Assembly: GCF_013167455.1 (NCBI RefSeq)
Contig: NZ_CP038328.1
Length of the DNA stretch: 64,000 nt
Source: Escherichia coli O157:H7
GTDB lineage: Bacteria; Pseudomonadota; Gammaproteobacteria; Enterobacterales; Enterobacteriaceae
Direction: 5' to 3' (one strand)
The notes beneath the pieces were generated by a model. It had not been told where the DNA came from. It saw only the letters and a list, made by a program, of their open reading frames with translations, and made no database searches. The position numbers and the translations under genes were made by a program. Position 1 is the first letter of the stretch; each line of letters starts with the position of its first letter. Below, piece after piece: positions 7,928 to 9,270 of the stretch.

Positions 7928-8004
7928 ATGAAGGGTCAACCAAAAGCCAGCTAAGGATTGTCTCTTTGATGACCTTACGTCTGGCTTCCAGTGCCTGGGG
8001 TGAA
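7911..8004 (-). pseudogene. ytfA: 3' fragment of ytfA separated from its 5' part by the IS insertion
   Basis: Minus-strand frame just beyond the inferred IS right end stays open for 30 codons ([30 protein letters not shown]) and is in frame with the ytfA 5' fragment once the IS is removed. Confidence 0.4.
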
Positions 8005-8200
8005 ACCATACTGATGTGTTGACATCCTCCAAGCCCTGAAGGACGTGGATCCCTGCTACGTTCAGGCTGTCGCCTGAATCATTTCGGTGGGTTCCTGCTT
8101 CAACGGGCGGCCTGACTGCACCATCTCCCCACAGGCAAGAACGGCGTGCCCCGCCGCTAAAATGTTACGAGCGCCATTTACATCAGCGTTCGCTGTATAT
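7985..8200 (-). ncRNA. putative TnpB guide RNA (omega-RNA/reRNA): scaffold from the tnpB 3' end and right-end region plus a roughly 16-20 nt guide from the flank
   Basis: Inferred from IS200/IS605 TnpB biology; right-end hairpin at 8029-8048 and a perfect 7-bp hairpin overlapping the tnpB stop (8061-8078) lie in the expected scaffold; extent is approximate and no RNA evidence exists. Confidence 0.35.
8029..8048 (-). repeat. right-end subterminal imperfect hairpin
   Basis: Top strand ccacgtcc-ttca-gggcttgg; same architecture and core as the left-end hairpin. Confidence 0.55.
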
Positions 8201-9270
8201 CCACATGCCTGGCATCTGAATTTACTTTGTGACAGGCGATTTTCTTTCGCTGTATGACCACAGCACGCGCAACGCTGGCTTGTGTACGCTGGCGGAACAG
8301 CAAGCACCTGACCGCCACGCCAGAGCTGCTTGTACTCAAGCTGGCGGCGCATTTCATACCAGCCCTGATCCAGTATCGAACGGTTTAAACCTGATTTTGC
8401 CCGGACATTGCGCCCCGGCTGGCTGACCGTACCCGCTGCTGACTTTGACATGTTGCTGACCTTCAAATCCTCAATGACTATCATTGCGTGGTTTTTGCTG
8501 ACGGTCGTTGTGACTTTGTGAAGGTAGTCCCTGCAGATATTTGCGATACAGGAATGCAGTCGCTGTATTTTGCGTTTCTGCTTCTGCCAGTTGTTGCTGA
8601 ATTTGACCTTGCGGCTTAACTGTCGCTGAAGTCTCGCCAGCGTCTTCTGGTTTTTCTGAAAACTGTTTACAGGTCCAAAGACTGTGCCATCTGACAGCGT
8701 GGCGAGTTTAGCCACGCCAGCATCCAGTCCGACCATTAATGCTGAAGGGTGAACCGGAGTTGATACTTCATTTTCAGTCTGAATACTGATGTACCACTTA
8801 CCGCAGGACTGGCTGGCAGTGACATTTTTCACAACACCCGTGACCTGACGGCTATTCCGGTAGCGCATCCAGCCAAGTTTCGGCAGAAAAATACGGCTGT
8901 TTTCCTGATCGAGCTTAACGCCCTGCGGGTAGCGGAATGCATCATTCTGTCCCCGCTTTTTGAATCGGGGAAAAGCAGCCCGCTTCCGGAAGAAGTTTTT
9001 GTAAGCCCGCTCAAGGTCTTTCAGTGACTGTTGCAATGGCTGTGACGGGGCATCTTTAAGCCATTGCGTTTCAGTGGCATTTTTCCACTCAACCAGCCAG
9101 GAAGCCATTTTCCCGTAAGGGATGTATTTATTACCGGCCTCATGATTCTCATTCTGAAGCGCCAGAGCACGATTGAAAACGAAACGACATGCGCCTGCGA
9201 AGCGCCTCATTTCACGCTCCTGTTGACCACCGGGTCTTAACTGGAATTTAAATGCCTGTAGTCGTTTCAC
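8062..9270 (-). CDS. tnpB: TnpB (OrfB) of IS200/IS605 family: RuvC-like nuclease with C-terminal zinc finger (402 aa, GTG start)
   Basis: N-terminus [12 protein letters not shown]; RuvC-I GLDAG (Asp183), RuvC-II IVIEDL (Glu267), zinc finger CACCGH...CQACGY, Ruv[13 protein letters not shown] (Asp363). Confidence 0.9.

Follow-up and report, generated by a model that had tools for sequence, protein, structure and literature searches.

The DNA analysed here, called the window, is a stretch of 64,000 nucleotides from Escherichia coli O157:H7 (contig NZ_CP038328.1). Near its beginning the gene ytfA, which encodes a TetR/AcrR regulator, is split by an insertion sequence (IS) carrying two divergent genes, tnpB on the minus strand and tnpA on the plus strand. 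We read the locus as an autonomous copy of IS609 (IS200/IS605 family, Y1 'peel-and-paste' transposition), inserted 3′ of a TTAT tetranucleotide in ytfA and encoding a TnpB RNA-guided endonuclease of the OMEGA (obligate mobile element-guided activity) class together with a predicted omega RNA; our probability for this reading is about 0.87. The genes and ends of the element are as follows (aa, amino acids; TAM, target-adjacent motif).

8019-9766, minus strand (the functional 'top' strand): complete IS609 element, 1748 bp, delimited by the empty site of strain CFT073 and by three independent insertions
8062-9270, minus strand: tnpB, 402 aa, GTG start, predicted RNA-guided endonuclease (open reading frame, Pfam and NCBIfam matches, match to the ISDra2 structure)
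8722-8724 (D183), 8470-8472 (E267) and 8182-8184 (D363), minus strand: tnpB RuvC codons, placed by alignment with ISDra2
8203-8271, minus strand: stretch of tnpB coding for the zinc finger (CxxC…CxxC)
9278-9709, plus strand: tnpA, 143-aa Y1 (HUH) transposase, divergent from tnpB (NCBIfam and RefSeq)
9767-9770, minus strand: TTAT target/cleavage tetranucleotide, 5′ of the left end, predicted TAM (three insertion sites and the empty site)
9730-9750, minus strand: left-end subterminal hairpin, CCCCGTCC TTCA GGGCGGGG (direct-repeat family D1, with the right-end hairpin)
7911-8018, minus strand: 3′ fragment of ytfA (RefSeq annotation of strain CDC#03-98, trimmed at the element boundary)

Identity and boundaries of the element

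A 2-kb query covering window positions 7900-9900 matched 5424 of the 5426 complete E. coli genomes, and strain CDC#03-98, from which the RefSeq annotation was taken, was 100% identical over this segment. RefSeq reports there an 'RNA-guided endonuclease InsQ/TnpB family protein', a divergent 'IS200/IS605-like element IS609 family transposase', and two flanking TetR/AcrR (ytfA) pseudogene fragments. The window copy is 97-100% identical to the copies named IS609 by RefSeq and in the K-12 literature (PMC5009759). Judged by its sequence, the element is thus IS609 or a very close iso-form, with no departure from the known system. The preliminary description of this DNA had regarded the element, with its guide and TAM, as uncharacterised. 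This view has to be abandoned: IS609 is found in nearly every E. coli genome, RefSeq already annotates the RNA-guided endonuclease, TTAT and TCAA have been surveyed as cleavage sites (PMC9956272), and assays exist for a TnpB with 85% identity to the present one (PMC12781874). The element, the TnpB family and the mechanism are all already known, and the exact sequence carries a RefSeq annotation.

The limits of the element were established from strain CFT073 (locus L001), which holds an uninterrupted ytfA site, the intact gene being 648 bp long. Alignment with the window gives …CTGATGTG (ending in GATGTG), the element, and then ATAAACCAGG… (beginning with ATAAACC), with a 1-nt ambiguity. Three independent insertions were then compared, in ytfA (the window), in yedK (L002) and in ydcO/insQ of K-12 (L003). 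In all three, the minus-strand left end reads TTAT followed by CCGGTGCGCC…, and the minus-strand right end reads …GGAGGATGTCAA, ending in TCAA, with unrelated flanks after it. An element shifted by one base (8018-9765), which the ambiguity allows, was ruled out, and 8019-9766 retained, because the three insertions have the same TTAT/CCGG… and …GTCAA junctions. The TTAT is kept in the CFT073 empty site, and no target-site duplication was found when this empty site was compared with the filled one. A published survey of TnpB-carrying elements in six species, E. coli included, counts TTAT as one of the common cleavage sites at the left end and TCAA as one of those at the right end (PMC9956272).

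Terminal inverted repeats are absent; instead a 21-nt direct repeat (8028-8048 and 9730-9750) forms hairpins at both ends, and these are the sole two matches to their motif across the window. The right-end hairpin announced earlier at 8029-8048 is therefore real, with its direct repeat at 9730-9750. An element end near 8005 proved wrong; the boundary lies at 8019.

The disrupted ytfA lies between ytfB and yjfZ. Its 5′ part runs from 9767 to about 10060, and the 3′ fragment as annotated by RefSeq in CDC#03-98 corresponds to 7911-8033 in the window, overrunning the element boundary at 8018. According to RefSeq the 5′ fragment has, moreover, no N-terminus, and about 400 of the 648 bp present in CFT073 remain. 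Since the 5′ fragment lacks its N-terminus in addition to the IS split, ytfA seems to have been damaged twice in this lineage. Of the 5426 complete E. coli genomes, 1743 have the ytfA::IS609 junction (window 7949-8088) at 97-100% identity and 3248 have the site without interruption (L001 651-790). The insertion is old and polymorphic.

TnpB and the predicted omega RNA

The protein itself is well defined. Pfam profiles identify HTH_OrfB_IS605 (3.9e-14), OrfB_IS605 (1.2e-32) and the Cas12f1-like TNB domain (2.7e-24), and the protein reaches 378.8 bits with the NCBIfam model guided_TnpB (NF040570, 'RNA-guided endonuclease TnpB family protein'), whose curated cut-off is 100. The full domain set is thus present: HTH/WED-REC, split RuvC and zinc ribbon (TNB). 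The RuvC residues are Asp183 in GLDAG, Glu267 in IVIEDL and Asp363 in ADVNGARNI, and the CxxC pairs lie at 334-337 and 353-356. With phmmer, the protein matches the ISDra2 TnpB structure 8h1j at E=1e-52, with D183, E267 and D363 aligned to D193, E280 and D363 of that structure, where residue numbers are the native ISDra2 ones plus 2, i.e. to native D191, E278 and D361. D361 is the third residue of the ISDra2 triad. The substitutions D191A and E278A abolish cleavage or interference by ISDra2 TnpB (PMC8612924).

The triad is retained in all 7 copies compared. Against the six other copies, the ratio of nonsynonymous to synonymous substitution rates (dN/dS) of tnpB is 0.21-0.31 for those from E. 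coli and 0.06-0.14 for the more distant ones, and tnpB is under purifying selection. The preliminary description had predicted a 402-aa minus-strand TnpB with a split RuvC triad, a CxxC…CxxC zinc finger and intact catalytic residues, and had pointed to profile searches as a check. All of this stands: the open reading frame, the residue positions and the Pfam and NCBIfam results agree, their scores lie far beyond chance, the triad aligns with the ISDra2 one, the zinc finger is kept, and no substitution of the three triad residues occurs among the seven copies.

One side observation concerns the zinc finger. A 17-nt direct repeat (88% identity, 8189-8205 and 8246-8262) corresponds to the two zinc-knuckle halves (…CGYTAN and …CGHTAK), and looks like the trace of an internal duplication or of convergent codon use.

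The RNA predicted to accompany TnpB overlaps the 3′ end of its gene, with the following parts.

8019-8168, minus strand: predicted omega RNA (reRNA) scaffold, minimal extent, ending in …GAGGAUGUCAA (RNAalifold and pair counts, 25 sequences)
8028-8049, minus strand: right-end subterminal hairpin, also the final stem in the predicted omega RNA (consensus helix 8: 9 pairs, 5 with compensatory changes)
8052-8087, minus strand: extended hairpin over the tnpB stop codon (helices 5-7: 12 pairs, 8 with compensatory changes)
7999-8018, minus strand: predicted guide, 5′-CACATCAGTATGGTTTCACC-3′, inside the ytfA 3′ fragment, from its position directly 3′ of the TCAA right end

Because Rfam 15 gave no match (see below), covariation among relatives was examined. 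Relatives were gathered from PLSDB plasmids (by tblastn), from IMG/VR and from the scaffold table of PMC12781874, yielding 43 distinct 150-nt right-end-proximal sequences, of which the 25 with a comparable layout were aligned. On these 25, RNAalifold proposes 43 pairs in eight helices, and 19 of the 43 pairs show compensatory double changes. Standard pairing is found in 96.0% of the cells, as compared to 36.9-47.5% when the partners are slid by 1-3 columns, and none of 500 column shuffles matched the observed values on any measure. In the window copy, 42 of the 43 pairs are standard. Folded alone, the window sequence is modestly better than its shuffles (z = -2.4). The internal helices are located at 8141-8157, 8094-8135, 8052-8087 and 8028-8049, and a long-range helix joins 8162-8165 with 8022-8025, just before the guide, its 5′ strand being near the 5′ limit of the 150-nt stretch analysed. 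The core of the stop-codon hairpin (8061-8078), noticed from the outset, is indeed a perfect 7-bp stem (ttcaggc tgtc gcctgaa). The expectation that a scaffold would be found at the tnpB 3′ end and right end is thus borne out by a conserved, covarying structure at that place.

The right-end hairpin alone could be explained by the recognition of single-stranded DNA by TnpA; helices 2, 4 and 6 lie outside it. Several helices are located inside the tnpB coding region, such as that at 8141-8157, in which synonymous changes exchange GC and AU pairs (13:11), and this argues for a constraint on the RNA beyond the DNA hairpin recognised by TnpA. Within the right-end hairpin, U·G wobbles can pair on the minus strand only, as at columns 140/149 in 13 of the 25 sequences. 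The 3′ architecture consists of a GAAUC-like motif, an 8-bp hairpin and then GAGG(A)UGUCAA. Homology extends to the scaffolds published for IS609 and ISAba30; the 3′ motif matches those of these two and of ISDge10 and ISTel2, and resembles that of ISDra2.

These results bear on a proposal made before 2021, according to which TnpB is mainly a protein regulator that damps excision and insertion by TnpA, and not an RNA-guided nuclease. Earlier work on ISDra2 did suggest such a role (summarised in PMC8612924 and PMC9956272), as a general argument which does not come from the present locus. A regulator of this kind would need neither an intact RuvC triad aligned to residues found essential by experiment, nor a covarying RNA scaffold overlapping its own 3′ end, and we hold it to be highly improbable here.

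A further observation was made in the scaffold region: a 16-nt stretch (8111-8126, CCTGACTGCACCATCT) forms an inverted repeat, 88% complementary, with 9583-9598 inside tnpA. It may be due to chance.

By analogy with ISDra2, where the guide is about 16 nt long (PMC8612924), the predicted guide is CACATCAGTATGGTTT, read from 8018 down to 8003; a further CACC extends it to 7999. The earlier idea of a guide read from the ytfA flank holds, while its placement at 7985-8004 was off by about 14 nt and is ruled out by the comparison of empty and filled sites, which puts the boundary between 8018 and 8019. The TAM is predicted, from the insertion sites, to be TTAT. The empty allele reads TTTAT+CACATCAGTATGGTTTCACC, i.e. 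it has the guide sequence directly after TTAT. Across the window, the sole near-match to a TAM-plus-guide target is the right-end junction itself, with TCAA where TTAT would be. As TCAA and not TTAT precedes the guide match, the occupied site would be protected.

When the left-end tetranucleotides of a few relatives were compared, E. coli IS609, L012 and L053 had TTAT, the Klebsiella and Xylella plasmids (L006 and L007, TnpB ~84% identical) had TTAC, and relatives that are ~61% identical had TGAT (flanks inspected: L006, L007, L049, L051, L012 and L053). Judged from these left-end flanks only, the TAM seems to switch within the clade. Separately, derivatives of ~1.32 kb with tnpB and without tnpA (L005, L012, many IMG/VR loci, L014-L030) all occupy one single site in P1-like phage-plasmids, with the lysozyme and head-processing genes on either side, and some of them have TCAC at the right end, not TCAA.

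Possible activity and retention of the ytfA copy

The transposase gene was compared between copies. TnpA scores 145.7 bits with the NCBIfam model transpos_IS200 (NF033573; cut-off 55), and its translation contains the HVH motif and a C-terminal Tyr. The gene is intact in the window, whereas the yedK copy (L002 1862-2287) and the K-12 ydcO/insQ copy (L003 1860-2285) carry the same premature in-frame stop at codon 96. The window copy therefore belongs, in contrast to the K-12 insQ locus, to those IS609 copies whose tnpA is still complete. In spite of the broken tnpA, the yedK and K-12 ydcO copies have a full-length tnpB under purifying selection. This means that tnpB outlives its transposase.

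A gene that persists in this way might be thought to have been domesticated. Nuclease-dead exaptations of TnpB, the TldR-type RNA-guided transcription factors, reportedly exist, and the intact tnpB beside a broken tnpA at K-12 ydcO would suit such a fate. At the present locus, the RuvC triad is intact and the C-terminus full length, where a TldR would be expected to have a mutated or truncated RuvC; functional-looking IS ends and an intact tnpA adjoin tnpB, where loss of the ends would be expected; and the guide differs per insertion site, as it does for a transposon. We give this explanation hardly any credit. Both TldR domestication and a pure role in regulating transposition were set aside on the intact triad, the complete transposon context and the site-specific guides.

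What the analysis shows for the IS609 reading is the anatomy of the element with its boundaries and target motif, catalytic residues that are all in place, purifying selection on tnpB, and a conserved RNA structure with covariation. We infer from family knowledge that the RNA would be transcribed and processed, that TnpB would bind it and cleave in a TAM-dependent manner, and that this would serve retention. The steps can be modelled on the work done with the ISDra2 family (PMC8612924). A minus-strand transcript would cover the ~150 nt comprising the 3′ end of tnpB and the right end, and its trimming would yield an omega RNA, whose 3′ tail (~16 nt, the guide) would be copied from the ytfA flank. 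TnpB would bind this RNA, and the complex would cut DNA in which TTAT is followed by the guide sequence. Its targets would be the 'donor joint', which is the empty site left after excision by TnpA, and the uninterrupted ytfA allele; repair by recombination with a sister copy would then restore the element. Preprints by Meers et al. and by Kaur et al. reportedly support this mechanism for the TnpB family.

A more specific proposal is that the ytfA copy is an active, allele-specific drive, its omega RNA being aimed at uninterrupted ytfA (TTAT+CACATCAGTATGGTTT). TnpB would then cut an incoming or restored 'empty' ytfA, a target allele present in 3248 of the 5426 complete genomes, which would explain why the insertion has been retained in about a third of the species. 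We regard this as possible, though rather doubtful. In any case it would apply the retention model already published for TnpB to a single locus, and add no new mechanism.

Several results weigh against an element that is still at work. The insertion is common to 1743 genomes, which points mostly to vertical inheritance rather than movement. In mutation-accumulation lines, the IS609 of K-12 never transposed (PMC5009759); the tnpA of that copy is broken, and its immobility agrees with the in-frame stop. A search of 7000-11000, on both strands, with the Rfam 15 covariance models gave no match at E<=1, which may just mean that Rfam has no matching family; this search, another of the checks proposed for the omega RNA, neither confirms nor refutes it. 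Only 7 bp (9271-9277) separate the start codons of tnpB and tnpA, which places the promoter of each gene within the other one or farther away. A consensus scan gave no convincing sigma-70 promoter for tnpB or for the RNA (3 promoter-like sites, 1.8 expected); the counts obtained in the promoter and terminator scan were near background and are uninformative.

The right-end hairpin adds a last point of this kind. On the RNA-sense (minus) strand of the window copy it is imperfect: a G·U wobble occurs once, and the bases at 8045 and 8032 form a C·U mismatch. This mismatch is absent from the other 24 sequences of the alignment, the window alone being unpaired at columns 138/151 (n=25). It results from a single base difference, the K-12 copy having a G where the window minus strand has a T. 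Only 309 genomes, O157:H7 included, contain the right-end junction as an exact 53-nt match (9 nt of flank and 44 nt of right end), and the mismatch therefore appears to be derived and lineage-specific. Recognition by TnpA or the fold of the RNA could suffer from it.

Taken together, these points could describe a functionally silent relic, in which the genes are intact by sequence and the element does not move, TnpB and its RNA are not made or are inactive, and inheritance is vertical only. The age of the insertion (the same junction in 1743 of 5426 genomes, at 97-100% identity), the lineage-specific mismatch, the scan without a clear promoter, the static IS609 of the K-12 mutation-accumulation lines (PMC5009759) and the presence of only about 2 TnpB elements per E. 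coli genome (PMC9956272) all fit such a state. A relic does not account well for two full-length reading frames, with a tnpA that is intact, unlike that of the K-12 and yedK copies, nor for purifying selection on tnpB even among near-identical E. coli copies, the conservation of all catalytic and zinc-binding residues, or the 42 standard pairs out of 43 in the scaffold. We consider it unlikely, and keep the reading of an autonomous IS609 with an RNA-guided TnpB.

Beyond correct annotation, the significance of the locus is small. The useful output is a precise map, with boundaries at 8019-9766, TTAT as the predicted TAM, the predicted guide from 8018 down to 8003 and a scaffold of ~150 nt supported by covariation. 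This map is directly usable for testing a native E. coli TnpB that has its own transposase intact. A literature search for the native E. coli TnpB under the names ydcM and InsQ returned nothing relevant.

Comparison with known systems

The closest systems are the IS609 copies of K-12 (insQ/ydcM, next to ydcO) and of yedK, with the same 1748-bp layout, junctions at matching offsets and ~97.7% DNA identity. They share with the window copy the 402-aa TnpB, the divergent tnpA, the TTAT and TCAA junctions and identical RefSeq names. The window copy differs from them by its location in ytfA, its tnpA without the stop, its guide, and one extra mismatch in the right-end hairpin.

A TnpB called 'IS609' has been studied in purified form, the assays using TTAT as TAM and a 206-nt scaffold homologous to the present one (PMC12781874, Nucleic Acids Research 2026). 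Its protein is 85% identical to the window TnpB, and its scaffold aligns throughout, ends in the same GAGGAUGUCAA and goes with the same TTAT TAM. It belongs to another clade, however, the nearest copies being those of the Klebsiella and Xylella plasmids (L006 and L007, left flank TTAC). In the 'Amino acid identity' column of that paper it is given 94.279%, which we read as identity to the ISfinder IS609 reference, yet it is 85% identical to the protein of the window.

The ISDra2 TnpB-reRNA complex of Deinococcus radiodurans (Karvelis et al. 2021, PMC8612924; structures 8h1j, 8bf8 and 8exa) is of the same fold family (E=1e-52, D/E/D triad aligned). As is predicted for the window, its RNA derives from the 3′ end of tnpB together with the right end, and finishes with an 8-bp hairpin, the motif GAGG(N)UCAA and a guide taken from the flank. 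ISDra2 departs from the present element by its TAM, TTGAT instead of TTAT, and by its tnpA and tnpB, which overlap and run in the same direction where those of the window are divergent. Between the two scaffolds, the similarity is clear in the 3′ third only, the upstream part not being alignable by eye.

Finally, IS608 of Helicobacter pylori is the structural model for Y1 'peel-and-paste' transposition. It targets TTAC, as compared to TTAT here, and has tnpA and tnpB in the same orientation, those of the window being divergent. Like the window element, IS608 inserts 3′ of a tetranucleotide without duplicating it, ends with TCAA on the right, and carries subterminal hairpins in direct orientation.

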